A stretch of 64,000 nucleotides of DNA from Escherichia coli (GCF_003334785.1 NZ_QOWV01000012.1), one strand, 5' to 3'; positions 1 through 29,413 are shown, numbered from the stretch's first letter. Translations and numbers: made by a program. The notes: generated from the letters alone by a model not told the origin.

Positions 1-760
1 CCTGCGCACCAAACCGTGCTGCCAGCGCTTCGGCGGCGCGGGCGAGCAGGGTGGTGTCAACGCCGACGGCGACAAACAGCGCGCCCAGTTCCAGATAGCG
101 TTTTGCCAGTTGCTCATTGGCGATCAGGATCCCCGGCGCTTTGCCCGCTTCGCGGATCTGCACGATCGCCTGCTCAATCGCGGCCTGTACTTCCGGGTGC
201 TGAGGATTACCGGCATAACCCATATCGGCGCTCAGATCCGCCGGGCCGATAAACACGCCGTCGACCCCTTCCACGTCCAGAATCTGCGGTAAGTTCTTCA
301 TTGCCTCACGCGTTTCGATCTGCACCAGCACGCACATTTGATCGTTGGCTTTTTGCAGGTAATCAGGAATACGATTCCAGCGCGAGGCTCGGGCCAGCGC
401 ACTGCCCACACCGCGAATACCGGCGGGGGGATAACGGGTGGCGCGTACCGCTTCACGGGCTTCGTCAGCGTTTTGAACCATCGGCACCAGTAAGGTTTGT
501 GTGCCGACATCCAGCAGTTGTTTGATTTGCACCGGATCGTTCCACGACGGACGTACCACCGGCTGGCTGGGGTAGGGCGCAATCGCCTGTAGCTGGGTGA
601 GCACGGTTTGCACGTTATTCGGCGCGTGCTCACCGTCGATCAATAACCAGTCGAATCCTGCTCCGGCCAGTAACTCTGCGCTGTAGCTGCTACTTAGCCC
701 CAGCCATAATCCGATCTGCGGGCGGCCTGCTTTCAGCGCCGCTTTAAAACTGTTTTCCAT
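1..760 (-). CDS. hpaI: 4-hydroxy-2-oxoheptanedioate aldolase HpaI (class II aldolase); 3-prime end cut by window edge
   Basis: Minus-strand reading from ATG (reverse complement of 758-760) gives [33 protein letters not shown]..., recognised as HpaI/HpcH; RBS GGAGAG just upstream; frame runs off window start (about 9 codons missing). Not in the supplied ORF track because it is truncated. Confidence 0.88.
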
Positions 761-770
761 CGTTCTCTCC

Positions 771-1574
771 TTAAACAAAGCGGCAGCTAATGGAGCCCAT
801 GTTGCCGTAATCGACGTGGAAGGTATCGCCCTTACGCGCCGGAACCGGGCGGGTGAACGAACCGCCGAGAATGATTTGCCCGGCTTCCAGTTGTACGTCA
901 TACGGTGCGAGTTTGTTCGCCAGCCAGGCCACGCCGTTTGCCGGATGATTTAGCACACCAGCGGCGACGCCAGTTTCTTCAATCACGCCATTGCGATACA
1001 TCAGGGCGGAGATCCAACGCAGATCCAGTTCGTCTGGTTTGATCGGACGACCGCCGAGGATCACTCCGGCGTTGGCGGCGTTATCAGAAATGGTGTCGAA
1101 CACTTTGCGCGGGCGCTGGGTTTCCGGATCGATGTTGTGGCAGCGGGCGTCGATCAGCTCCAGCGCCGGGATCACGTAGTCCGTGGCGTTGTAGACGTCG
1201 AACAGCGTGCAGTTTGGCCCACGCAGCGGTTTTGCCAGCACAAAAGCCAGCTCCACTTCAATGCGCGGCACGATAAAGCGATCGGTCGGGATATCGCTGC
1301 CATCGTGGAAGAACATGTCGTCCAGCAATGCACCGTAATCTGGCTCGCTGATTTGTGAGCTGGCCTGCATCGCTTTCGAGGTCAGGCCGATTTTGTGGCC
1401 TTTCAGCGTGCGGCCTTCGGCGATTTTCAGTCGGACCCATTCGCGCTGTACGGCGTAGGCGTCTTCAATGGTGATCTCCGGGTAATCCAGCGAGATCGCG
1501 CGGATCTGTTCACGCTGTTTTTCTGCCTGATCCAGACGCTGGGCGATCAGGGTGTGGGTGTGTTTATCGAACAT
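771..1574 (-). CDS. hpaH: 2-oxo-hept-3-ene-1,7-dioate hydratase HpaH
   Basis: ORF 771..1592 translation matches HpaH/HpcG hydratase; start placed at internal ATG (MFDKHTHTL...) which has an AGGA RBS, giving 267 aa. Confidence 0.9.
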
Positions 1575-1641
1575 AGCGATATCCTGTGGCATTGCCGGAT
1601 GCGGCTGCGCCTTATCATCCAGCCTGGAAGCTGGTGCAAAT

Positions 1642-2022
1642 TTATTTAAACAACGCGTGTACGTTGTTCTGTTTGAAATTCAACGTCGGGTGCAGCTCTG
1701 CAATCTCAAATGAAAGCGCCAGGTAACGGCTCTCCATCAGTGAGGCGAAGTGCGTTTTAATCAGATCAAACAGCATTTCGCCTACTTCCTGACGGCTTTC
1801 CAGACTGCGCCCGCTGCCGATTTTTAGCGTCATATGCACAAAGGCGTAATCGTGCTTGCCATCAGCCATTTGCCAGGTATCGATCCAGTGTGCCCGGCTA
1901 CGTATTCCCCCAAGCGGAAAAATCCCCGTCGCCGCCAGTGCGGTGTTAACACTGGCAAACAGCTCAGGTAAGCGGGCTTCTTGACGAATATTTTCAGTAC
2001 ATTCCACGATAAAGTGCGGCAT
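1642..2022 (-). CDS. hpaF: 5-carboxymethyl-2-hydroxymuconate isomerase HpaF
   Basis: 126-aa [25 protein letters not shown]... recognised as CHM isomerase; position in hpaGEDFHI order. Confidence 0.9.
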
Positions 2023-2031
2023 GGTTTTTCC

Positions 2032-2883
2032 TTACGCGGGAAGCGGGAAAACAGCGTTAACCTGACCAGTGCCAGAGCTTGGGAACAGCTCGGTAATAAA
2101 CTCCACCTTGCCGTCGTATTTATCCCAGCCGAGCATCCCCAGCAGCATCACCGTGTCGTGCATATTGCCTTCGCCGTAGCAGTAGTCGGCGTACTCCGGC
2201 AGCATATTGCAGAACTCTTTGAACTGGCCTTCGCGCCACAGCTTCACCACGCGCTCGTCCATCTGGCGGTCGAACTCGCGGGTGTAGCTGTTCATCCCTT
2301 CTTCTGCACGCTGATCGTCAATAAAGCGGTGCGATAACGAACCGCTGGCAAGGACCGCCACGGTGCCGTCGTACTGTTCGATCGCTTTCAGAATCGCTTC
2401 GCCCAGCTTGCGGCTGTCGGCAAAATCATGAACGGTACAGAATGCGGAGATGGAGACCACTTTGAAGTGCTTGTCTTCATTCATGTAGCGCATCGGCACC
2501 AGCGTGCCGTATTCCAGTTTCAGGCTGGGAATGTTGTGCGTTTTTGCCCGCACGCCGAGCTTTAAGGCTTCATCGGCAATTAGCTGCCCCAACTCCGGGT
2601 TGCCCTCGTAGTTGTAGGTCATGTCACGAATAAAATGCGGCAGCTCGTTACTGGTGTAGACGCCTTCAAAATGGTCTGCACAGTTGATGTGATAAGCACT
2701 GTTGACCAGCCAGTGGGTATCGAAAACGATAATGGTATCGACGCCCATTTCCCGGCAACGCTTGCTGATCTCTTTATGCCCGTCGATCGCACCCTGGCGG
2801 CAACCGTGGTTTTTCCCAGGCAGCTCAGAGAGATACATCGACGGTACGTGCGTGATCTTGGCGGCTAACGCTAACTTACCCAT
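2032..2883 (-). CDS. hpaD: 3,4-dihydroxyphenylacetate (homoprotocatechuate) 2,3-dioxygenase HpaD, extradiol LigB-type
   Basis: 283-aa ORF MGKLALAAKITHVPSMYLSELPGKNHGCRQ...; typical size and sequence of HpaD; operon context. Confidence 0.9.
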   Translation of the reverse strand: MGKLALAAKITHVPSMYLSELPGKNHGCRQGAIDGHKEISKRCREMGVDTIIVFDTHWLVNSAYHINCADHFEGVYTSNELPHFIRDMTYNYEGNPELGQLIADEALKLGVRAKTHNIPSLKLEYGTLVPMRYMNEDKHFKVVSISAFCTVHDFADSRKLGEAILKAIEQYDGTVAVLASGSLSHRFIDDQRAEEGMNSYTREFDRQMDERVVKLWREGQFKEFCNMLPEYADYCYGEGNMHDTVMLLGMLGWDKYDGKVEFITELFPSSGTGQVNAVFPLPA

Positions 2884-2884
2884 A

Positions 2885-4351
2885 TCAGACTCCCCATTTC
2901 GGAATTGGATGGTCGCCCATGGAAATGCAGACGTTCTTCATTTCCGCGAACACTTCGAAGCTGTACTCACCGCCTTCACGCCCGGTGCCGGAGGCTTTTA
3001 CGCCGCCAAATGGCTGGCGCAGGTCACGCACGTTCTGGGTGTTGACGAACACCATGCCAGCTTCAATGCCACGCGCCAGGCGTAACACTTTGCTGACATC
3101 CTGTGTCCAGATGTACGACGCGAGGCCGTACTCCACGTCGTTTGCCAGACGTAAGCCTTCGGCTTCGTCTTTAAACGGCAGCAGGCAGGCGACCGGCCCG
3201 AAAATCTCTTCCTGGGCAACGCGCATACGGTTATCTACGTCCGCCAGCACCGTTGGGCGCAGGAAGTTGCCGCCTTTCAGGTGTGCAGGCAGGTCAGACG
3301 GTTTATCCGGGCCGCCCGCCAGCAGGGTTGCGCCTTCTTCAATGCCGAGACGGATATAGCCGGAGACTTTATCCCAGTGTTGCTGGCTGATAAGCGCCCC
3401 AACCTGGGTATTCGGATCGTTCGGATCGCCCACGCGCAGACGGTTGGCGCGTTCGGCAAAGCGTTTAACGAATTCCGGGTAGATGCTTTGCTGAATAAAG
3501 ATGCGCGAACCGGCGGTGCAGCGCTCGCCGTTGATCGAGAAGATGGTGAACAGGGCGGCGTCCAGCGCGCGTTCAATATCGGCATCTTCAAAAATCAGCA
3601 CCGGCGATTTACCGCCCAGTTCCATGGAGTATTTTTTCAGCCCGGCGTTTTTCATGATGTTGCGCCCGGTGGCCGTACCGCCGGTGAACGACACGGCACG
3701 TACGTCATGATGACGAACCAGCGCATCGCCTGCGGTTGCGCCGTAGCCCTGTACCACGTTCAGCACGCCTGCCGGAATACCGGCTTCCAGCGCCAGCTCA
3801 CCCAGGCGGTCAGCGGTCAGCGGGGAGAGTTCCGACATTTTCAGTACCGCGGTATTGCCCAGCGCCAGACACGGCGCGACCTTCCATGTGGCGGTCATAA
3901 ACGGTACGTTCCACGGCGATACCAGCGCACAAACGCCCACCGGCTGCACCAGCGTGTAGTTGAGCATCTTGTCGTCAACCGGATAGGTCTTGCCGTTCAT
4001 CTGCTGGCAGACTTCCGCGAAAAATTCAAAGTTGTGGGAAGCGCGTGGGATCAACACATTTTTGGTCTGATGGATCGGCAGGCCGGTGTCCGCGGTTTCC
4101 ATCGCGGCGATCTCTGGCACGTTCTGGTCGATCAGATCGCCCAGACGGCGCATCAGGCGCGCACGCTCTTTCATCGGCAGATTGGCCCATTTCGGGAACG
4201 CCTCTTTCGCTGCCGCTACCGCCTGATTGATCTCCGCTTCACCGCCAGAGGCCACATCCGCCAGCACTTCACCCGTTGCCGGATTGGTGGTCTGAAAGTA
4301 GTCGTTACCTGCAACATTTTTGCCGTTGATCCAATGATTTACTTTTTTCAT
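2885..4351 (-). CDS. hpaE: 5-carboxymethyl-2-hydroxymuconate semialdehyde dehydrogenase HpaE (NAD-dependent aldehyde dehydrogenase)
   Basis: 488-aa ORF with aldehyde dehydrogenase hallmarks (ELGGKSP, catalytic Cys region GERCTAGSR); operon context. Confidence 0.92.
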   Translation of the reverse strand: MKKVNHWINGKNVAGNDYFQTTNPATGEVLADVASGGEAEINQAVAAAKEAFPKWANLPMKERARLMRRLGDLIDQNVPEIAAMETADTGLPIHQTKNVLIPRASHNFEFFAEVCQQMNGKTYPVDDKMLNYTLVQPVGVCALVSPWNVPFMTATWKVAPCLALGNTAVLKMSELSPLTADRLGELALEAGIPAGVLNVVQGYGATAGDALVRHHDVRAVSFTGGTATGRNIMKNAGLKKYSMELGGKSPVLIFEDADIERALDAALFTIFSINGERCTAGSRIFIQQSIYPEFVKRFAERANRLRVGDPNDPNTQVGALISQQHWDKVSGYIRLGIEEGATLLAGGPDKPSDLPAHLKGGNFLRPTVLADVDNRMRVAQEEIFGPVACLLPFKDEAEGLRLANDVEYGLASYIWTQDVSKVLRLARGIEAGMVFVNTQNVRDLRQPFGGVKASGTGREGGEYSFEVFAEMKNVCISMGDHPIPKWGV

Positions 4352-5637
4352 TTCGCTGTTTCCTCACTCACAATTCGGTTCACCAGGCAGCCCACGCCTT
4401 CTACTTCCACCACTACTTCATCGCCAGGCACCACGTCAGATAAGCCTTTTGGTGTGCCGGTGGCGATCATGTCGCCCGGATTCAGGGTCATAAATTCGCT
4501 TAAGTAGGCGATCAGGAAGGGCACGCTGAAGATCAGATCGGCGGTGGTGCCTTGCTGGCGTAACTCGCCGTTGACGAAGGTGCGAAGGGTCAGATTATGC
4601 GGGTCCGGGATCGCCTCTTTCGGCACGATGGTTGAAAGCATCGGCGTCAGTCCGTCGCGGCTTTTTACCCGCAGGTTAGGGCGGTAGTAGTTTTCCAGAT
4701 AGTCGCGAATGGCGTAGTCGTTACACACGGTGTAGCCCGCGACATAATCCATGGCATCGGCTTCGCTGACGTTACGCGCCTGTTTGCCAATAACTACCAC
4801 CAGCTCCGCTTCATAGTGCATGTATTCAATATTGTTTGGACGCACGGAGGTCTGGTTATCGCCAGTGAGGGTATTTGGCGCTTTCAGGAACACCAGCGGT
4901 TCTTCCGGTGGCTTAAATTCCAGTTCGCTGGCGTGGTCGGCGTAGTTCAGGCCGAGGGCAAACAGCGTGCCGTGCGGGTGTGGCTGCGTTGGGAAGCTCT
5001 TGCGCGTGGTCACTTCACGTTCGTCCACTACCGGATTTTCCAGCGGCGGGAAACCTTCTGCGAGAACACGAACGCGATCGCCTGGCTGTATTTCCACGCG
5101 CGCCTGTGGCGTGCCGAGCAGAATGGCATCGCCTGGATTCAGTGTGGCAAATTCGCTCAGGGCGCTCAGCAACTGCGCGGCGTTACGTTGTAAATCGGCG
5201 GTATTCCAGTGATCGGCAGGACGCCCGTTGATCTCGGTATAGATGGTCAGATTATCGACATTGCTGAGAGCCACGGTTTCGCCAATGGGGCAGAATCCAT
5301 CACGACATTTTGCTTTGATTGCCGGGCGGTAAAAGCTCTCTTCCGGCAGGCTGACGTCGTTAGCCAGCGCATATCCGGCGATGTACTCTGCCGCATCTTC
5401 TTCACGTACTTTCGTCGCCGTTTTTCCCACAATCAGCGCAACAGTCGCACCGCTCAGTACCTTTTCACCCTGTGGAAAGGGAATCGGTTCACCGCAACCA
5501 ATCACCGTATTGCGCGGTTTAATAAACCAGACCGCAGTTTTAGGCGGGGCTTTGTAGGGGGATTGCTGGAACGCTTCCTGCCATGCATCAAGTTGGCTGC
5601 GATGGTTCAACGCTACGGCGAAGATAGTGCCTTTCAT
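4348..5637 (-). CDS. hpaG: bifunctional OPET decarboxylase / HHDD isomerase HpaG (tandem FAH-fold domains)
   Basis: ORF 4348..5643; start placed at ATG with GAGGAG RBS (MKGTIFAVALNHRSQ...), 429 aa; stop overlaps hpaE start (ATGA). Confidence 0.9.
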   Translation of the reverse strand: MKGTIFAVALNHRSQLDAWQEAFQQSPYKAPPKTAVWFIKPRNTVIGCGEPIPFPQGEKVLSGATVALIVGKTATKVREEDAAEYIAGYALANDVSLPEESFYRPAIKAKCRDGFCPIGETVALSNVDNLTIYTEINGRPADHWNTADLQRNAAQLLSALSEFATLNPGDAILLGTPQARVEIQPGDRVRVLAEGFPPLENPVVDEREVTTRKSFPTQPHPHGTLFALGLNYADHASELEFKPPEEPLVFLKAPNTLTGDNQTSVRPNNIEYMHYEAELVVVIGKQARNVSEADAMDYVAGYTVCNDYAIRDYLENYYRPNLRVKSRDGLTPMLSTIVPKEAIPDPHNLTLRTFVNGELRQQGTTADLIFSVPFLIAYLSEFMTLNPGDMIATGTPKGLSDVVPGDEVVVEVEGVGCLVNRIVSEETAK

Positions 5638-5662
5638 TACCACTCCTCGGATTCGATCATCT

Positions 5663-5686
5663 TAATCATTAATATGTTAATGATTA
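5663..5686. promoter_or_regulatory. Perfect inverted repeat TAATCATTAA-tatg-TTAATGATTA in hpaG upstream region; candidate HpaR operator
   Basis: Palindrome read directly in sequence 26 bp upstream of hpaG start, in AT-rich divergent hpaG/hpaR region; assignment to HpaR is inference. Confidence 0.4.
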
Positions 5687-5908
5687 CTTTTATTCCCGAT
5701 TGCGTAGTTTGGCAAAAGTAAGTGATGTAAATGTGATCTAATTAACAAACTATTTACATTTAAAGATAATAAAATATTAAATATCATTAAGTTAATAAAA
5801 TATCATCAATTTTGATAAAATCAGGAATTGCAGGGACAGCGCAGTCCCGGTAACGTGACGATTAACTGTTTCTATATTAATAATTTTGAATTTTTCAGGG
5901 GAAAGATA

Positions 5909-6355
5909 ATGCACGACTCTCTAACCATTGCGTTGCTCCAGGCGCGAGAAGCGGCGATGAGTTATTTTCGCCCAATCGTTAAACGGCATAATTTGACTGA
6001 GCAACAGTGGCGCATCGTGCGTATTCTGGCGGAAAGCCCATCAATGGATTTTCACGATCTGGCGTATCGTGCCTGCATTTTGCGCCCAAGCCTGACCGGG
6101 ATCCTTACGCGGATGGAACGCGACGGTTTAGTGTTGCGATTAAAGCCGATCAATGATCAGCGGAAGCTCTATATCTCGCTGACCAAAGAGGGGCAGGCGC
6201 TGTATAACCGCGCTCAGACACAGATTGAAGAAGCCTATCGGCAGATTGAAGCTCAGTTTACTGCCGAGAAAATGCAACTGTTAACCCATCTGTTAGAGGA
6301 ATTTATTGCTCTGGGCAATTCCCGACAAGAAGACATCCCGGGCGATAATGAATAA
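5909..6355 (+). CDS. hpaR: MarR-family repressor of the hpa meta operon, HpaR
   Basis: ORF 5828..6355; start placed at ATG giving MHDSLTIALLQAREAAMSYFRPIVKRHNLTEQQWRIVRIL... (148 aa) with winged-helix MarR pattern; divergent from hpaG. Confidence 0.88.
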   Translation: MHDSLTIALLQAREAAMSYFRPIVKRHNLTEQQWRIVRILAESPSMDFHDLAYRACILRPSLTGILTRMERDGLVLRLKPINDQRKLYISLTKEGQALYNRAQTQIEEAYRQIEAQFTAEKMQLLTHLLEEFIALGNSRQEDIPGDNE

Positions 6356-6416
6356 CTTTTTAGTATCTGATAACCAGCCCCTGGTTTTTCCATGGATGGC
6401 GGGTTACACCTTTTCA

Positions 6417-6443
6417 TAAAGTTTTTGCTTTCCAGGCCGAAAA
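6417..6443 (+). promoter_or_regulatory. Sigma-28 (FliA) type promoter for tsr
   Basis: TAAAGTTT - 11 nt - GCCGAAAA matches flagellar class III consensus TAAAGTTT-N11-GCCGATAA, about 30 nt upstream of tsr ATG. Confidence 0.7.
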
Positions 6444-6473
6444 TCTTGCATCGGTCCACAGGAAAGAGAAACC

Positions 6474-8138
6474 ATGTTAAAACGTATCAAGATCGTGACC
6501 AGCTTACTGCTGGTTTTGGCCGTTTTTGGCCTTTTACAACTGACATCAGGCGGTCTGTTCTTTAATGCCTTAAAGAATGACAAAGAAAATTTCACTGTTT
6601 TACAAACCATTCGCCAGCAGCAATCCACGCTGAATGGCAGCTGGGTCGCGTTGTTGCAGACGCGTAACACCCTCAACCGCGCGGGTATCCGCTACATGAT
6701 GGATCAGAATAATATTGGTAGCGGTTCAACCGTTGCTGAGCTGATGCAGAGTGCCAGTATTTCGCTGAAACAGGCGGAAAAAAACTGGGCGGATTACGAA
6801 GCGTTGCCGCGTGACCCGCGTCAGAGCACCGCCGCAGCGGCAGAGATCAAACGTAATTACGATATTTATCACAATGCGCTGGCGGAGCTGATCCAACTGT
6901 TAGGTGCAGGCAAAATCAACGAGTTCTTTGATCAGCCGACTCAGGGATATCAGGACGGTTTCGAGAAGCAGTATGTGGCTTACATGGAACAAAACGATCG
7001 GCTCCATGATATCGCCGTCAGCGATAACAATGCCTCCTACAGCCAGGCGATGTGGATTCTGGTGGGCGTGATGATCGTCGTACTGGCGGTCATCTTCGCC
7101 GTCTGGTTCGGTATTAAAGCCTCGCTGGTAGCGCCAATGAATCGCCTGATTGACAGCATTCGTCATATTGCAGGCGGCGATCTGGTGAAACCGATTGAGG
7201 TGGATGGCTCTAATGAGATGGGGCAACTGGCAGAGAGTTTGCGCCATATGCAGGGAGAGCTGATGCGTACCGTCGGTGATGTGCGCAACGGGGCCAATGC
7301 CATCTATAGCGGTGCCAGCGAAATCGCTACCGGCAATAACGATCTCTCTTCGCGCACCGAGCAACAGGCTGCTTCGCTGGAAGAGACGGCAGCCAGCATG
7401 GAGCAACTGACCGCAACGGTGAAACAGAACGCCGAGAATGCGCGCCAGGCCAGCCACCTGGCGTTAAGTGCTTCTGAAACGGCGCAACGCGGCGGCAAAG
7501 TGGTAGATAACGTGGTGCAGACTATGCGTGATATCTCCACCAGTTCGCAGAAAATCGCCGATATTATCAGCGTAATTGACGGCATTGCCTTCCAGACCAA
7601 TATTCTGGCTTTGAACGCGGCGGTTGAAGCAGCGCGTGCGGGTGAGCAAGGACGTGGTTTTGCGGTGGTTGCGGGAGAAGTGCGTAATCTGGCCCAGCGT
7701 AGCGCCCAGGCGGCTCGTGAAATTAAAAGCCTGATTGAAGACTCGGTGGGGAAAGTGGATGTTGGCTCTACGCTGGTCGAAAGCGCCGGGGAAACAATGG
7801 CGGAGATTGTCAGTGCTGTGACCCGCGTGACGGACATTATGGGCGAAATTGCTTCTGCTTCTGATGAGCAGAGCCGTGGTATCGATCAGGTTGGCTTAGC
7901 GGTTGCTGAGATGGACCGGGTAACTCAACAGAACGCCGCGCTGGTGGAAGAATCTGCCGCCGCCGCCGCCGCGCTGGAAGAGCAGGCCAGTCGCCTGACC
8001 GAAGCAGTGGCAGTGTTCCGGATTCAGCAACAGCAGCAACAGCAGCGTGAAACATCGGCTGTGGTAAAAAACGTGACGCCAGCTACGCCGCGTAAAATGG
8101 CAGTGGCAGATAGCGGGGAGAACTGGGAAACGTTTTAA
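6474..8138 (+). CDS. tsr: methyl-accepting chemotaxis protein I (serine chemoreceptor)
   Basis: 554-aa ORF, N-terminal TM, HAMP, methylation helices, highly conserved MCP signalling domain ([27 protein letters not shown]), C-terminal NWETF pentapeptide. Confidence 0.96.
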
Positions 8139-8149
8139 TCGCCATAAAA

Positions 8150-8179
8150 ATGCCCGATAAGCAAAATGTTATCGGGCAT
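8150..8179. terminator. Bidirectional hairpin terminator between convergent tsr and lgoT
   Basis: Inverted repeat TGCCCGATAA-gcaaaatg-TTATCGGGCA flanked by A/T runs. Confidence 0.7.
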
Positions 8180-8186
8180 AGGGAGT

Positions 8187-9548
8187 TTAATCTTTACGCG
8201 GGTCGTTGATCGGCTGACGAACCAGGAAGATGTACGCCAGTGCTCCCGCTGCGGTGACGCAACCGCAGATGATTAGTGCCAGACGGAATGAGTGGGTGGT
8301 ATCAACAATAAAACCAGTAATGATCGGCGCAAAAGAGGCGCAGATGAAGCTGGCAAAGTTCTGGATACTGCCCACCGACGCCGTCATGCGAGAAGCAACT
8401 GCGACGTGGATCAAGCCCCAGCAGGATGTTCCGGCAAAGTGAATACAGAACAGTGCCATGCCAATCAGCAGAACCGCCGTCATGGATGTTGTCGCTTGCG
8501 GTACGACCAGCGTAAAGGCGGCAGAACAGAACATCCCGGCAATAATGCAGATCTTACGGCTTTTAATCGGAGCCATTCCCCCTTTGACCAGCCAGTCAGT
8601 AACGTAACCGTTGACCAGCATCCCGGCAGCCCCAAACAGGAAAGGGATAGCCGCCATCAACCCTGTGCTTTTTAAATCCAGGTTATAGGCTGTTTGCAGG
8701 TAACCAGGAAGCCAGGCCAGATACAGCCACGCAGTGTAGTTGATGCCACTGAATCCGAGCATCATTCCCCACATTGTGCGGTTACGGAACAGGCTGCGCC
8801 ATTCGGCAAAACTGAGCGGATCTCGGCGGGCATTGACGCTACCTGCATTGAGATAAGCTTGTTCAACGGCAGTCAGTTCTACGTGCTCGCGGTTGCGATA
8901 GAGCATATACCAGCCAATGGCGAGAAAAATCCCCAGCACACCAATGGTAATAAACATCCCACGCCAGCCCATCACCAGCATCATCGCCGCCAGAATCGGT
9001 GGGCTTACGGCAACGCCAATGGTAGAAGCTGCGTTGAAGAAGCCCATCGGGCGTCCGCGCTCTTTGATGTTGAACCAGTCGTTAATGACTTTTACGCCAC
9101 ATGGGTTCATCGGCGCTTCACCAATCCCCATACCGATACGCACCAACACGAACTGCGTAAAGCTGTGCACCATGCCAGACATGGCCTGGAACAGTGACCA
9201 GAAGAACATCCCCAGTCCCAGCATCAGGCGTGGGCCTTTACGATCCAATAGTGGGCCGCAAGGAAGTTGCGCAATCCCGTAAGCGAGTGAAAACACGGAG
9301 AGCAAAGCGCCGATTTCGGTGGCACTTAATCCCAATTCTTCACGAATCGTTAAATTTGCTACCGACAGCGAACTGCGGTCGAGATAATTGATTACCGCCG
9401 CAAAAAATAATAACAACATGGCGGTGGTTTGAATGCGTTTAATTCGGGTACTGCGTTGAACTAATCCATCTGGTGGCACGGGAATATCTGCCGACGAAGA
9501 TGGAGTAAATGAAGAACGCGGATCGAGGGTGATATTTTCTTTTTCCAC
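8187..9548 (-). CDS. lgoT: MFS transporter, L-galactonate:H+ symporter (YjiZ/LgoT)
   Basis: 453-aa ORF with 12-TM MFS pattern, recognised as E. coli YjiZ/LgoT; apparent GTG start. Confidence 0.9.
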   Translation of the reverse strand: MEKENITLDPRSSFTPSSSADIPVPPDGLVQRSTRIKRIQTTAMLLLFFAAVINYLDRSSLSVANLTIREELGLSATEIGALLSVFSLAYGIAQLPCGPLLDRKGPRLMLGLGMFFWSLFQAMSGMVHSFTQFVLVRIGMGIGEAPMNPCGVKVINDWFNIKERGRPMGFFNAASTIGVAVSPPILAAMMLVMGWRGMFITIGVLGIFLAIGWYMLYRNREHVELTAVEQAYLNAGSVNARRDPLSFAEWRSLFRNRTMWGMMLGFSGINYTAWLYLAWLPGYLQTAYNLDLKSTGLMAAIPFLFGAAGMLVNGYVTDWLVKGGMAPIKSRKICIIAGMFCSAAFTLVVPQATTSMTAVLLIGMALFCIHFAGTSCWGLIHVAVASRMTASVGSIQNFASFICASFAPIITGFIVDTTHSFRLALIICGCVTAAGALAYIFLVRQPINDPRKD

Positions 9549-9762
9549 GCCGGACTCCTGTATTTATAATTTTAATTGTTTACGTAATTGTGCATTACGC
9601 AAGGTTGACATTAACGGCAGGTTAAAGTTTTAGGACTTTACTACCGCTCACAAAAACATTTTTAGTCGACTGATTGTGAGCATAGGTAAGCGGGAATTTC
9701 CCGGTATTTATCTTTTGATAAAACCGTGCACCCGCTAATAGTTTGCTGTTTTTAATCCGTAC

Positions 9763-10677
9763 TTAATGAGCATAACGCGTGTTCTCATTAATGGATCGAA
9801 TCATTGATTGTTTAGCTGAATTCAAATGGTTACGGAGCGCAAGGGTGGCATCAAGGTCACTGCGGCAAATCAGAGCGCTGAGAATGGTCATATGCTCATC
9901 GACGGCAATGATATTGCGCTGTTTAAGATCGCTTTCGTCCCATTGATAGTGAAAATGAAAGATGACTGAGATGATCTCAAGAGATTGATCAAAAAAGATA
10001 TTGTCGGCAGCTGAAAGCAGTAAGGAGTGAAAATCTCTGTCAAGTTGCGAGAACATGCGAAAGCTATTGCCGATGTTGTCACGCAGTAGCCGATGACGTT
10101 CGAGCATGGTTTTCGCCTGCAGCCAGCGGGGATCATGATCAGGCAGGTTGAGAAAGTGCTGAAGTGAATGTGTTTCGAGCATTTCGCGTAGTTCAAACAG
10201 CTGCTCGGCGTAGGATTGATCGAATTGCTTCATGCTCCACTGGCCGCGCTTTTCGCTTTGAATAAGATTATAACGGCCGAATTTTAAAAGATATTCTCTT
10301 ACTACAACCGGGCTGACACCCGCGGCCCGAGCCAGTTGCAGTTCAGAAAAAGTTTCCCCAGGGCGTAACTGGCGCTGGTTTATCATCGTGAAAAAAGCCT
10401 GCTCAAACACTTTGTTTTGTTCACTCATTGAAGCGGTAGTACAGGCGAAACCGTCATCATGGTCAGGTTTACGCGCAATCACATAGTCGTTTCCAACCTG
10501 CGTTAAGACGCCGCATTCGCGTAAGTGGCTGAGAATATGACGCACTGTAGTGCGGCTGATGTTGTACATTTCCGCCAGCGCACTTTGCGATGGAAGTGGG
10601 GAAGGGATATGACCCCGCGCCATATCATCAATGACCTGGTTAATCACATTGTGGCGTAAATTTTGTGAACGACTCAT
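9763..10677 (-). CDS. lgoR: GntR/FadR-family transcriptional regulator (YjjM/LgoR)
   Basis: 304-aa ORF with N-terminal GntR HTH (LPSQSALAEMYNISRTTVRHIL); divergent from lgoD. Confidence 0.9.
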   Translation of the reverse strand: MSRSQNLRHNVINQVIDDMARGHIPSPLPSQSALAEMYNISRTTVRHILSHLRECGVLTQVGNDYVIARKPDHDDGFACTTASMSEQNKVFEQAFFTMINQRQLRPGETFSELQLARAAGVSPVVVREYLLKFGRYNLIQSEKRGQWSMKQFDQSYAEQLFELREMLETHSLQHFLNLPDHDPRWLQAKTMLERHRLLRDNIGNSFRMFSQLDRDFHSLLLSAADNIFFDQSLEIISVIFHFHYQWDESDLKQRNIIAVDEHMTILSALICRSDLDATLALRNHLNSAKQSMIRSINENTRYAH

Positions 10678-14522: not shown

Positions 14523-15020
14523 TCAGGAAATGAAGTTCAGCCCCTGCTTTAACACCAGATCGCAGGCTTTGGTTTTCACCTTTTCTGCCAGCGGAGTCGT
14601 TCCGATGTTATCCAGATTGAGTTGCTGACCATCTTTGGTTTTCAGCAAACCCTGAATGCCATCCAGATAGTTGGTGTCTTCTTTTTGTTCTTCACTGTTC
14701 AGGCCCAGCTTTTCCAGCACCTGGTTCTTGATGTTTTCGGCATCGGTTACCGACGCCAGCTTTTGCTTCGCGCAGTATTGCAGAATGCCTGCGGCGTTGT
14801 TCATGTTATCTGCGCTTAAGGCCTGGTTCCCGCTGCTAAGCAAGTTAGTTAATGACGCGAGCGACCAACCGCCTTCCTGTGTCGTGCTGTTTTGGTTGCC
14901 AAGTTCGCTGGCGGCGCTGGAGAGCGCATCTTTCCAGGACGCAGCATGCACCCCAGTGGAAATTAATGCGCTGGCGGCAATGGCACAGCACAGAAGATGT
15001 TTAACAGTTTTCATCATCAT
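14523..15020 (-). CDS. yjjA: DUF2501 secreted protein YjjA
   Basis: 165-aa ORF with signal peptide (MMMKTVKHLLCCAIAASALISTGVHA); recognised as YjjA; exact start (MMM vs MMK) uncertain. Confidence 0.85.
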   Translation of the reverse strand: MMMKTVKHLLCCAIAASALISTGVHAASWKDALSSAASELGNQNSTTQEGGWSLASLTNLLSSGNQALSADNMNNAAGILQYCAKQKLASVTDAENIKNQVLEKLGLNSEEQKEDTNYLDGIQGLLKTKDGQQLNLDNIGTTPLAEKVKTKACDLVLKQGLNFIS

Positions 15021-15065
15021 TACTCAAGGTGGAATTGTGTCGCAGTATACCGCCAGAAACGGGGA

Positions 15066-15803
15066 TTAATACTCTTTACCTGTTACCCGGCTACGGTAGC
15101 TATCCCAGTTGAAGATCACCCACAAACTGTTACCCAGGCGCATACGGTCCATCACGCGTTCGCCCAGCAACTTGGTCATCTCTTCCATATTACTGTTGGT
15201 CAGCATCCCGGTTGGGCGTTTGGAAGAAGAGCGGCGATCGACGATCTGGTTGATGATCACTTTTTCGTATTTCGATTCGGTCTGCACGCCGATCTCATCG
15301 ATCACCAGCAGATCAACGTTGCTCAGATCGTTAAGCAGTTGTTCTTCGCTGGTACCGCTATTCCTGAAGGTATCTTTCATCGCCGACATAATATCGGCCA
15401 CGGTGATGATCAATACGGATTTACCGCGTAGCAGCAGCTCGTTGCAGATTGCCGCCGCCAGATGGTTTTTGCCGGTTCCTGGCTTACCAGAAAAGATGAA
15501 GCTGGCGATGTTGCCGTCAAACTCTTCGACATACTGGCGCGCTTTGCTTAACGCATTCATCTGCCCTTCACACTCAACGCGATAGTTCTCAAAGGAGCAG
15601 TTCTGATGCAGTGGACGAATACCGGAGCGGTTAAAGGTGCGCTGCATTTTCATCGCCCGATTTTCACGTTCGAGAGCGGCGGAGCGGATCGCCCCTTGTT
15701 CTTTCTGCCAGGCCAGTAGCTCTTCACCCGTTTTGAATGCAGGTTTGATATGGGCAGGCATCATTTTTTGCAGGCGTTGCATCAGGTCGCCAACGTTTTT
15801 CAT
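15066..15803 (-). CDS. dnaC: DNA replication helicase loader DnaC (AAA+)
   Basis: 245-aa ORF with Walker A GKPGTGKNHLAAA and Walker B LLVIDEIG; recognised DnaC. Confidence 0.97.
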   Translation of the reverse strand: MKNVGDLMQRLQKMMPAHIKPAFKTGEELLAWQKEQGAIRSAALERENRAMKMQRTFNRSGIRPLHQNCSFENYRVECEGQMNALSKARQYVEEFDGNIASFIFSGKPGTGKNHLAAAICNELLLRGKSVLIITVADIMSAMKDTFRNSGTSEEQLLNDLSNVDLLVIDEIGVQTESKYEKVIINQIVDRRSSSKRPTGMLTNSNMEEMTKLLGERVMDRMRLGNSLWVIFNWDSYRSRVTGKEY

Positions 15804-15805
15804 CG

Positions 15806-16345
15806 TTACCCTCTGAATCCTGGTGGAATTTGGCTGTCAGGTTCGCTGACCGTATTCACATCTCGTTTCGGCAGTCCGCCGTTGCTGGCACGACCGATTT
15901 GCAGGCTGCGCGCCAGTTTTTGTTGCCACTGCACATGGTGAAAGACTTTACCTTCCGCCTGCCAGTAGGCAATGAATGAGGCCAGTTCTTCGGTGGTCAC
16001 CGGCTCTCTTAGCGCCACGCCCCATAGCGCCGCCAGGCGGATAAAGTCGGCATCGGGTTGCCAGTCCGGATACATGGCGAATTTCCCCATGGGGACAGCA
16101 ACGGGAGCGGCTTGCGGTTCCTGATAGAGTTGATCGTCCAGAGCGACATCGCTTCCCGGACGCGCCAGCTTTTCTTCCAGCGCCAGCAGTTCAGCCAGGC
16201 GTGCAGGCGTGACGGCATAAAACGCCGGGGCATTGTTAGCAAATACGGCAACCACACCGCCTTCAGCTTTTGCCAGAACGGTTTGGTGATCGTGTACCAG
16301 GGCGTCAATACCAACGACGTCCGGGGTCAAAACTCTGGAAGACAT
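15806..16345 (-). CDS. dnaT: primosomal protein DnaT
   Basis: ORF 15806..16357; start placed at [17 protein letters not shown] (179 aa); 2-nt gap to dnaC. Confidence 0.93.
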
Positions 16346-16451
16346 ACTGTTTCTCAAATATGGAACGATGAACGAGAAGGGAGATAACTTTTATAGTAAC
16401 ACACGGAGGAGAGGAGGCTGTCTCTCATCCGTGTGCTTAAGCGAGGCAATT

Positions 16452-16925
16452 TTATACGCGAGGGCGCTTGCGGTACAACCATAATCCAGGAATGGAAAGA
16501 CCGATGGATAACGCACCAACAATCGATGAAGCTGTAAGAAAGTTGGTTAACAGGGTAATCATCAACGGTTCGCTGTAACCTAACTGGCTGATTTTTACCG
16601 CCGAAATCATTGCGGTATAAGCCGATATGCCCGGGAACATAGGGATAACGGCCGCCACGGTAAACACTTTCGGATGCGCCAGATACCAGCGCGACCATTG
16701 AATACCAATGGTGCCGACCAGCATAGAAGCCATAAAAGTTGACCACTCAATATTCAGCCCGCTGGTCATTAAGATCATTCGTGAACCATGGCCAATCGCG
16801 CCAAGCAGCGCACACCAGCGTAACGCCCGCACGGGAACGTTGAACACCATCGCAAAGCCGACCGCTGGAATGGCGGCGAGGATCATATCCTGCGCCAATG
16901 CAAACAGAAACTCGATCACACCCAT
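16452..16925 (-). CDS. yjjB: threonine/serine exporter-family inner membrane protein YjjB (ThrE C-terminal-like)
   Basis: ORF 16452..16940; start at [12 protein letters not shown] (157 aa); hydrophobic multi-TM; overlaps yjjP by 10 nt. Confidence 0.88.
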
Positions 16926-17686
16926 CCGCGTAGCCCCCAAATCGTCAGTGCCATCACTACGCCGACGCAGGTAGCCAGCGTCAGCAGACTGGCGATCGCC
17001 CAGCGTGCCAGTCCGGTATTGATGTGGCCTTTAAACATATCGGCGACGGCATTAATCAACGGAAAGCCCGGCACCAGCAGCAGAACGCTGGCGGCCATCG
17101 CAATGGTGGGTGTATCGCTGAAAGTGGGGAGTTGCAAAAGCAATCCGGAAATGGTGGTGGCGGCGAAAGCGGTAAGGCAAAAGTTGATCTGTGGATGAAG
17201 ATGACGTTGTGCCAGCAGCTGGCGGATATACATCGCGGTCGTACTGGCAAAGAAGGTGATGACGGCACCATCCCAGCCACCGTTATTGAGTTTACAGAAA
17301 CAGGCGCAAGAAAGGCCAACCATTAAGGCTACCAGCCATCTTGGGTAACGTAATGGCTGAATTTGGCTAAATCGTTTCTCTACGCCTTTGTAATCCAGCA
17401 GATGATGCTCCGCAAGAATCACAATGTGCTGGACTTCAGTCACCACATGCATATTAATGCCGCGATCGTGATTTTTTCGTGTCGATGTCAGGCATTGCCC
17501 ATCTTTAATAGTTGTCAGCACTATGGCGTTCGAAGAGATAGAACTTTCGACGCTGTCCATTCCCAACGCCCGACCCAGTCGTGAGGAAAGCTCATCAACC
17601 AACGCGCTTTCCGCACCATGTTGCAAAAGAAATAATCCACACTGGATACAAAGCCGCGTTACGGCTCGCTGTTGCTCAGTTTGCAT
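16916..17686 (-). CDS. yjjP: threonine/serine exporter-family inner membrane protein YjjP (ThrE N-terminal-like)
   Basis: ORF 16916..17749; start at [15 protein letters not shown] (256 aa); paired with yjjB as a split ThrE-type transporter. Confidence 0.88.
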
Positions 17687-20908: not shown

Positions 20909-20995
20909 TGGTGCGAGGGGGGGGACTTGAACCCCCACGTCCGTAAGGACACTAACACCTGAAGCTAGCGCGTCTACCAATTCCGCCACCTTCGC
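20909..20995 (-). tRNA. leuQ: tRNA-Leu (anticodon CAG)
   Basis: Reverse complement reads GCGAAGGTGGCGGAATTGGTAGACGCGCTAGCTTCAGGTGTTAGTGTCCTTACGGACGTGGGGGTTCAAGTCCCCCCCCTCGCACCA, the E. coli tRNA-Leu(CAG) with encoded CCA; single copy here. Confidence 0.95.

Positions 20996-28904: not shown

Positions 28905-29413
<509 letters not shown>

Follow-up and report, generated by a model that had tools for sequence, protein, structure and literature searches.

The hpa catabolic cluster beside tsr in a non-K-12 Escherichia coli is probably an old resident of a multi-allelic btsT-tsr gap

We analyzed a 64,000-nucleotide stretch of Escherichia coli DNA (GCF_003334785.1, NZ_QOWV01000012.1; here called the window, at its full length), whose first 6,355 positions carry hpa genes for the catabolism of homoprotocatechuate and end next to the serine chemoreceptor gene tsr. 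A preliminary description made from the sequence alone had read this segment as a strain-variable catabolic island, inserted so that its boundary sits directly on the promoter of tsr. Comparison with other genomes identifies the segment as the right-hand half of the classical hpa cluster, 11 genes long, of E. coli B, C and W. Instead of a recent insertion, the cluster is very probably an old resident of the gap between btsT and tsr, held at the same position in Klebsiella and lost or replaced in many E. coli lineages, among them K-12.

The strain of origin is not K-12 but lies very close to E. coli E2, which was isolated from poultry in the USA. Positions 1-6500 of the window are 99.95% identical to E2, and over the whole 64 kb the two differ by 13 substitutions and one 236-bp insertion or deletion. 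In E2, W and BL21(DE3), the gene order is yjiA-yjiX-btsT-hpaC-hpaB-hpaA-hpaX-hpaI-H-F-D-E-G-hpaR-tsr-lgoT, with nothing but the 11 hpa genes between btsT and tsr. The genes hpaX, hpaA and hpaBC, which had been expected to the left of the window, are indeed present and intact there in the near-identical E2, with btsT beyond them. Aligned to the hpa regions of W and B, the segment shows 96.8-97.6% nucleotide identity and the same btsT and tsr flanks, in keeping with its first assignment.

In E. coli W, the genes, their order and orientation, and the flanking btsT (formerly yjiY, of the CstA family) and tsr are the same as here. Nucleotide identity to W over positions 1-6500 is 96.8-97.3%, and the HpaG, HpaE, HpaD, HpaH, HpaI and HpaR proteins of the two are 99-100% identical (427/429, 487/488, 282/283, 267/267, 252/253 and 147/148 residues, respectively). 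E. coli B (BL21(DE3)/REL606) has the cluster at the same locus and is collinear without gaps over positions 1-6500, with 97.6% identity; HpaD, HpaF, HpaH, HpaI and HpaR of BL21 match in 282/283, 126/126, 267/267, 252/253 and 147/148 residues, and a few amino acid differences fall in HpaG, HpaE and Tsr, the last of which has 551 amino acids in BL21 and 554 here. HpaF departs from this pattern in that it is identical to the BL21 protein but matches that of W in only 106/126 residues, although the neighboring genes are over 99% identical, and W has 43 extra bp in the hpaH-hpaF spacer (positions 1575-1641 of the window). The hpaF gene together with this spacer looks like a local allele replacement inside the operon.

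The cluster of W, comprising hpaBC, hpaA, hpaX, hpaGEDFHI and hpaR, is credited to Prieto, Diaz and Garcia 1996 in PMC7201708. The statement that B, C and W all carry it was borne out by sequence for W and BL21(DE3); for C, where the equivalent genes are named hpc, it rests on PMC7201708. Growth on hydroxyphenylacetate is a trait of strains B, C and W that K-12 lacks, and the description of the cluster dates from 1996 (PMC7201708; PMC3446290). K-12 MG1655 has only 377 bp between btsT and tsr, so that the absence of the cluster from K-12 and the non-K-12 origin of the window were both correctly called; the gap is 376-377 bp long in MG1655 and in the B2 strain SE15, and we refer to this state as empty. 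As a separate observation, the DNA to the left of yjiA is cassette-like as well. It holds penicillin G acylase in W (positions 14674-17214 of the extracted locus L006), where E2 has hsd-mrr (hsdR-mrr at 1-3369 of locus L001, found also in K-12 and BL21), an HNH endonuclease in O157:H7 (1-556 of locus L003), and a BrnT/BrnA toxin-antitoxin pair in SE15 and CUVET19-1704.

We then scored the contents of the btsT-tsr gap in 5426 complete E. coli genomes, with the threshold for megablast coverage set at 80%. The hpa cluster is carried by 2068 of the 5426 (about 38%), which upholds its strain variability, and the gap is empty in 2752. An O157-type filler occupies it in 363 genomes, and a D-amino-acid island in 194-195, of which 35 have a long form with hydroxyproline genes. 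Together these classes account for about 5378 genomes, out of roughly 5390 with any match to the locus. A two-state view of presence or absence is thus too simple for this locus, where no fewer than five or six alternative contents are found between btsT and tsr. A literature search for the btsT-tsr gap as a named hotspot returned nothing.

The O157:H7 allele is an AT-rich filler of 778 bp (4224-5001 of L003), whose carriers are mostly O157:H7. It contains an open reading frame (ORF) of 180 amino acids that had no NCBIfam or PHROG match and only weak, chance-level matches in PADLOC and Pfam. The D-amino-acid island, 5.9 kb long in, for example, CUVET19-1704, encodes a deaminase, an N-acyl-D-amino-acid deacylase, RidA, a sodium:solute symporter and a MurR/RpiR regulator. 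A 16-kb form, found in TW10598 and in a cryptic Escherichia lineage, adds hydroxyproline-type genes to this island, and strain HH45 has a truncated version of it. No similarity was found among the fillers. The 92 bp that fill the K-12 gap, the 778 bp of O157 and the 61-bp spacer between hpaR and tsr had no match in any other allele or in the loci of Klebsiella and the cryptic Escherichia lineage.

The history of the cluster was examined by comparison with Klebsiella. In K. pneumoniae (CP125156.1), yjiA-yjiX-btsT is followed by a CRP site and then by hpaCBAXIHFDEG-hpaR, so that the hpa cluster lies in the same place and in the same gene order as in E. coli, with about 81% nucleotide identity, and the CRP-like site is identical to that of the E. 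coli hpa allele. The two loci differ in that hpaG is annotated as two genes in Klebsiella, the hpaC terminator is different, and hpaR is followed not by tsr but by Ldh-family and D-amino-acid genes. Nucleotide identity between the two species is 82.1% for yjiA, 87.7% for yjiX and 84.7% for btsT, and 71-88% for the hpa genes. We note that the CP125156.1 record, 5.37 Mb long, is labeled 'plasmid unnamed2' and is evidently a chromosome, and that its btsT frame, when simply translated, is interrupted by stop codons, suggesting either a pseudogene or a sequencing error.

Signs of mobility were sought at the segment itself. No integrase or transposase is annotated in it or at its edges in E2, W or BL21, and no tRNA gene lies at an hpa junction, the only one in the window being at 20909-20995. 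Between the two hpa junctions there are no significant flanking repeats or target-site duplications, the best match being an inverted one of 9 bp (E = 0.048). Because of the synteny with Klebsiella, the core-like divergence and the lack of a mobility signature, we read the cluster as an old syntenic segment that was lost or replaced in K-12 and other lineages. For K-12, loss is the more likely history, and the K-12 state is likewise attributed to loss, with reference to Diaz 2001, in PMC7201708.

The opposite view, implied by the term 'insertion boundary' in the preliminary description, is that hpa is a horizontally acquired island that was inserted by the tsr promoter in ancestors of the B/C/W type, K-12 preserving the original empty site. 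Several observations point that way. The cluster is missing from K-12, from SE15 and from 2752 genomes in all, its GC content is slightly raised (56.7% in the hpa genes compared to 52.1% in the rest of the window), and homology breaks off sharply at the ends of the segment; moreover, related hpa clusters are found on true plasmids of Erwinia, Pantoea and Providencia, and therefore the cluster can move. Against a recent arrival, the left junction and the gene order are the same in K. pneumoniae, the hpa genes and the flanking core genes have diverged from Klebsiella to the same degree, and divergence among hpa clusters within E. coli reaches about 3%, while mobility genes, tRNA genes and target duplications were not found at the segment. 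Furthermore, the 'empty' site is not a clean pre-insertion site, since it holds 92 bp of its own unrelated sequence. We consider acquisition at this site unlikely, and the notion of a recent island with an insertion boundary was not sustained.

Several points nevertheless weigh against our reading of hpa as an old resident. The difference in GC content, although modest, could suggest a foreign origin (PMC7201708 calls the GC content of hpa similar to that of the genome). The cryptic Escherichia lineage has no hpa cluster in the gap, so that the presence of hpa in the ancestor of the genus can be suggested but not taken as given. The polarity is set by a single Klebsiella record, with E. albertii, E. 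fergusonii and E. marmotae outside the comparison, and a scan of a genome collection anchored on the 5′ end of tsr gave matches to just two genomes, the E. coli representative and the cryptic lineage Escherichia sp. E1V33. The genome set behind the allele counts is clinically biased. The 92-bp filler of the empty gap and the 61-bp spacer of the hpa allele have no match in the other alleles, and no single simple deletion would convert one allele into another. Finally, that selection accounts for the sharp boundaries, as proposed below, is something we infer from the sequences.

The right-hand boundary was located relative to the promoter of tsr. A FliA (sigma-28) promoter, TAAAGTTT-N11-GCCGAAAA (in full TAAAGTTTTTGCTTTCCAGGCCGAAAA), lies on the plus strand at 6417-6443, with one mismatch to the consensus. 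It is the only match to TAAAGTTT-N11-GCCGATAA in the 64 kb, where 0.05 would be expected by chance, and 30 nt separate the end of its -10 element from the ATG of tsr. The class 3 promoter of tsr in K-12 is identical in 27/28 bases (a C-to-G change in the spacer) and stands at the same distance from the start codon. Its K-12 version, TAAAGTTTTTCCTTTCCAGGCCGAAAAT, corresponds to the FliA motif from chromatin immunoprecipitation sequencing, and tsr expression was 630 compared to 9 in a fliA mutant (PMC4183435). Given the 27/28 identity, FliA probably binds here too and drives tsr expression in this strain. Upstream of about -39 the two strains are unrelated: K-12 has its 92-bp filler and then the btsT promoter, whereas the present strain has the 3′ end of hpaR.

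Between hpaR and the tsr promoter lies a spacer specific to the hpa allele (6356-6415), which forms the right end of the strain-variable DNA. Genomes without hpa align to the window only from 6411-6416 onward, and a base-by-base comparison of four alleles places the start of similarity at 6413-6416, that is, 1-4 bp before the -35 element; the strain-variable DNA accordingly ends at 6412-6415. The distance of about 60 bp given earlier is therefore right for the hpaR stop codon, which is 61 bp from the -35 element, but not for the end of the variable DNA, which lies 1-4 bp from it. That the variable DNA abuts the FliA promoter of tsr agrees both with the allele comparison and with the single sigma-28 match. 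On this side, similarity resumes in all alleles at ATAAAGTTT, and all of them preserve this sequence, GCCGA(A/C)AA and the ribosome-binding site. The D-amino-acid allele has a diverged promoter spacer and 5′ untranslated region (42/57 identical), but its -35 and -10 elements and its ribosome-binding site are kept. The tsr gene retains a FliA promoter of its own in every allele.

The position of hpaR raises the question of a functional link, in which read-through from hpaR into tsr, independent of FliA and governed by the HpaR regulon, would couple Tsr chemosensing to homoprotocatechuate catabolism in hpa-carrying strains. Among the alleles, hpaR is the only upstream neighbor that points toward tsr, and there is no convincing terminator hairpin behind it: the spacer at 6356-6415 has no significant hairpin and folds no better than shuffled sequence (z = -1.0), and a consensus scan found no terminator past 6355. 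Tsr is also reported to sense 3,4-dihydroxymandelate (DHMA), a catechol acid closely related to homoprotocatechuate. TynA and FeaB, besides their part in making DHMA, yield hydroxyphenylacetates that feed the Hpa pathway. The reports that Tsr recognizes DHMA made by TynA and FeaB are summarized in PMC6194112; that study itself, however, saw weak or repellent responses to DHMA. Moreover, the strain in which DHMA sensing was described, K-12, lacks the hpa cluster, and the same autonomous FliA promoter is kept beside four or more unrelated neighbors. Such a coupling appears quite improbable to us.

The left-hand boundary has a similar form. Every allele keeps one TGTGA-N6-TCACA site, located 213 bp from the btsT start, or 336 bp from it where an ERIC element has been inserted, and the bases immediately beyond this CRP-like site differ among alleles. 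The insertion was observed in E2 (6806-6935 of L001, ~5 kb to the left of the window) as ~125 bp between the btsT start codon and the promoter region; it contains GTAAGCTCCCGGGGATTCAC, presumably an ERIC-type repeat, and is absent from K-12, O157 and the D-amino-acid allele. Control of btsT (yjiY) by cyclic AMP-CRP has been reported (PMC5431176), and the conserved CRP-like site fits this report. In a further observation at this junction, a strong terminator hairpin abuts the CRP-like site of btsT in both the hpa allele (7137-7177 of L001) and the D-amino-acid allele (6229-6267 of locus L004), with fold z-scores of -3.1 and -5.9, respectively. The two hairpins have the arms GCCCCTTCG / GAAGGGGC in common but wholly different loops, and the genes lying behind the hairpins bear no relation to each other. 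The shared arms may have arisen when two similar terminators recombined.

In the alignments, the variable DNA ends within a few bases of the CRP-like site of btsT on the left and of the -35 element of tsr on the right, and it seems able to reach up to these elements but not into them. The boundaries are likely to be sharp because deeper events would disable a flanking promoter and be selected out, and the closeness to the tsr promoter would therefore be a footprint of selection and not of targeted insertion. The exchange of mutually unrelated catabolic fillers between strains is most simply explained by homologous recombination within the conserved flanks, and an occasional illegitimate deletion would add to the turnover of the gap. 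HH45 shows how losses in the gap arise: the middle of its N-acyl-D-amino-acid deacylase (amidohydrolase) gene is joined to the last 8 bp ahead of the -35 element of tsr (9268-9300 of locus L014) at a 4-nt GGAT microhomology, the mark of an illegitimate deletion, and the FliA promoter is left intact.

A dedicated cassette-exchange site, at which a site-specific recombination system recognizes sequences near the CRP site and the -35 element, would account for five or six unrelated contents ending within a few bases of the same two points and for the left-junction terminators that share arms and differ in loops, but we rejected it as highly improbable. No recombinase gene lies in or beside any allele; immediately outside the conserved elements, each allele has different bases; these elements are themselves binding sites, known or plausible, for proteins acting at the flanking promoters; and the sole junction that could be reconstructed, that of HH45, is a microhomology deletion.

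The gene content of the segment agrees with the identities first given, with the ORFs at the places named. All seven hpa products in the window exceed the curated NCBIfam equivalog cutoffs. Six genes lie on the minus strand in the order hpaG-E-D-F-H-I: hpaG (4348-5637), a bifunctional isomerase/decarboxylase of 429 amino acids (NF011750, 977.6 bits versus a cutoff of 811); hpaE (2885-4351), 5-carboxymethyl-2-hydroxymuconate semialdehyde dehydrogenase of 488 amino acids (TIGR02299, 739.2 versus 638.35), whose start overlaps the hpaG stop by 4 bp; hpaD (2032-2883), the ring-cleaving 3,4-dihydroxyphenylacetate 2,3-dioxygenase of 283 amino acids (TIGR02298, 548.5 versus 315.95); hpaF (1642-2022), 5-carboxymethyl-2-hydroxymuconate delta-isomerase of 126 amino acids (NF011605, 263.5 versus 215); hpaH (771-1574), 2-oxo-hept-4-ene-1,7-dioate hydratase of 267 amino acids (TIGR02312, 464.6 versus 351.5); and hpaI (from 760 to beyond position 1), 4-hydroxy-2-oxoheptanedioate aldolase (TIGR02311, 434 versus 368.8). 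The divergent gene hpaR (5909-6355, plus strand) encodes the MarR-family repressor of the meta operon, with 148 amino acids (TIGR02337, 198.7 versus 121.2), as had been proposed. The same arrangement, with hpaR divergent across an AT-rich control region, is annotated in E2, W and BL21.

HpaG, HpaI, HpaH and HpaF each match, over the full length, a structure solved for the corresponding enzyme (PDB 1gtt over residues 1-429; 2v5j/4b5s, E = 1e-163; 2eb4 over residues 1-267; and 1otg, respectively). The mechanical ORFs of hpaR (5828), hpaG (5643) and hpaH (1592) begin upstream of the annotated or structure-supported starts. The window edge cuts hpaI, leaving 253 of its 262 codons inside and the C-terminal 9 codons and the stop to the left; the full gene measures 789 bp in E2. 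The operon had been described as a complete pathway, and all six enzymes are recognizable, but because hpaI runs off the left edge it is not strictly complete in the window; in E2 the operon is whole. In this pathway, homoprotocatechuate is formed from 3- or 4-hydroxyphenylacetate through hydroxylation by HpaBC, its ring is opened by HpaD, and HpaE, HpaF, HpaG, HpaH and HpaI convert the cleavage product to pyruvate and succinate semialdehyde. On the right flank, tsr (6474-8138, plus strand) encodes the serine chemoreceptor of 554 amino acids (NF011615, 1221.9 versus 947 bits). It is annotated in all genomes compared and forms the conserved right edge of the variable gap; lgoT (8187-9548, minus strand) is the next gene. 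A search of positions 1-10000 against Rfam gave no family at threshold.

The region between hpaG and hpaR (5638-5908) is AT-rich, with a GC content of about 0.39-0.44 in sliding windows. The promoters of the meta operon and of hpaR should lie here: a scan of 5500-6600 gave seven sigma-70-like matches compared to 2.4 expected, five of them within 5638-5908, although which match serves which gene can only be suggested. A perfect 10-bp inverted repeat, TAATCATTAA-TATG-TTAATGATTA, occupies 5663-5686 (100% complementary), 26-49 bp upstream of the hpaG start. It contains TTAA-N4-TTAA, a motif found four times in the 64 kb compared to 0.7 expected, and this is the motif of HpaR sites, which are similar in E. 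coli W (PMC7180172). From its sequence, the palindrome is likely to be the HpaR operator, and HpaR would repress the meta operon, probably through this site, until an aromatic inducer is present.

Two further features were seen elsewhere in the window. At 20909-20995 (minus strand) there is a single tRNA-Leu(CAG) gene, where E2, W and BL21 have three tandem copies, and the window is 236 bp shorter there. We take this site to be the leuQPV operon. The copy number of tRNA-Leu(CAG) varies among complete genomes, and some O157:H7 strains also have one copy. The single copy here may reflect either a genuine collapse by recombination or one introduced during assembly. Between yjjV and yjjW, 4.8 tandem copies of a 101-bp unit (94% matches) extend over 28916-29403. 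Because the unit contains GCCGGATAAGGCG-type palindromic motifs, the array looks like a REP/BIME-type element.

Knowledge of the cluster, of its pathway and regulator and of its absence from K-12 goes back to the 1980s-1990s, its location beside tsr has likewise been published, and the tsr promoter is a mapped FliA target; in these respects the result matters little beyond correct annotation. What it changes is the meaning of 'island' at this locus, which would here denote an old segment lost by K-12 and not a recent insertion. The btsT-tsr gap emerges as a multi-allelic catabolic cassette site whose edges coincide with the outermost promoter elements of the flanking genes. It could act as a natural promoter-deletion series, in which five or six unrelated upstream sequences mark the outer limits of both promoters, and its natural alleles may serve for comparing the expression of tsr and btsT.

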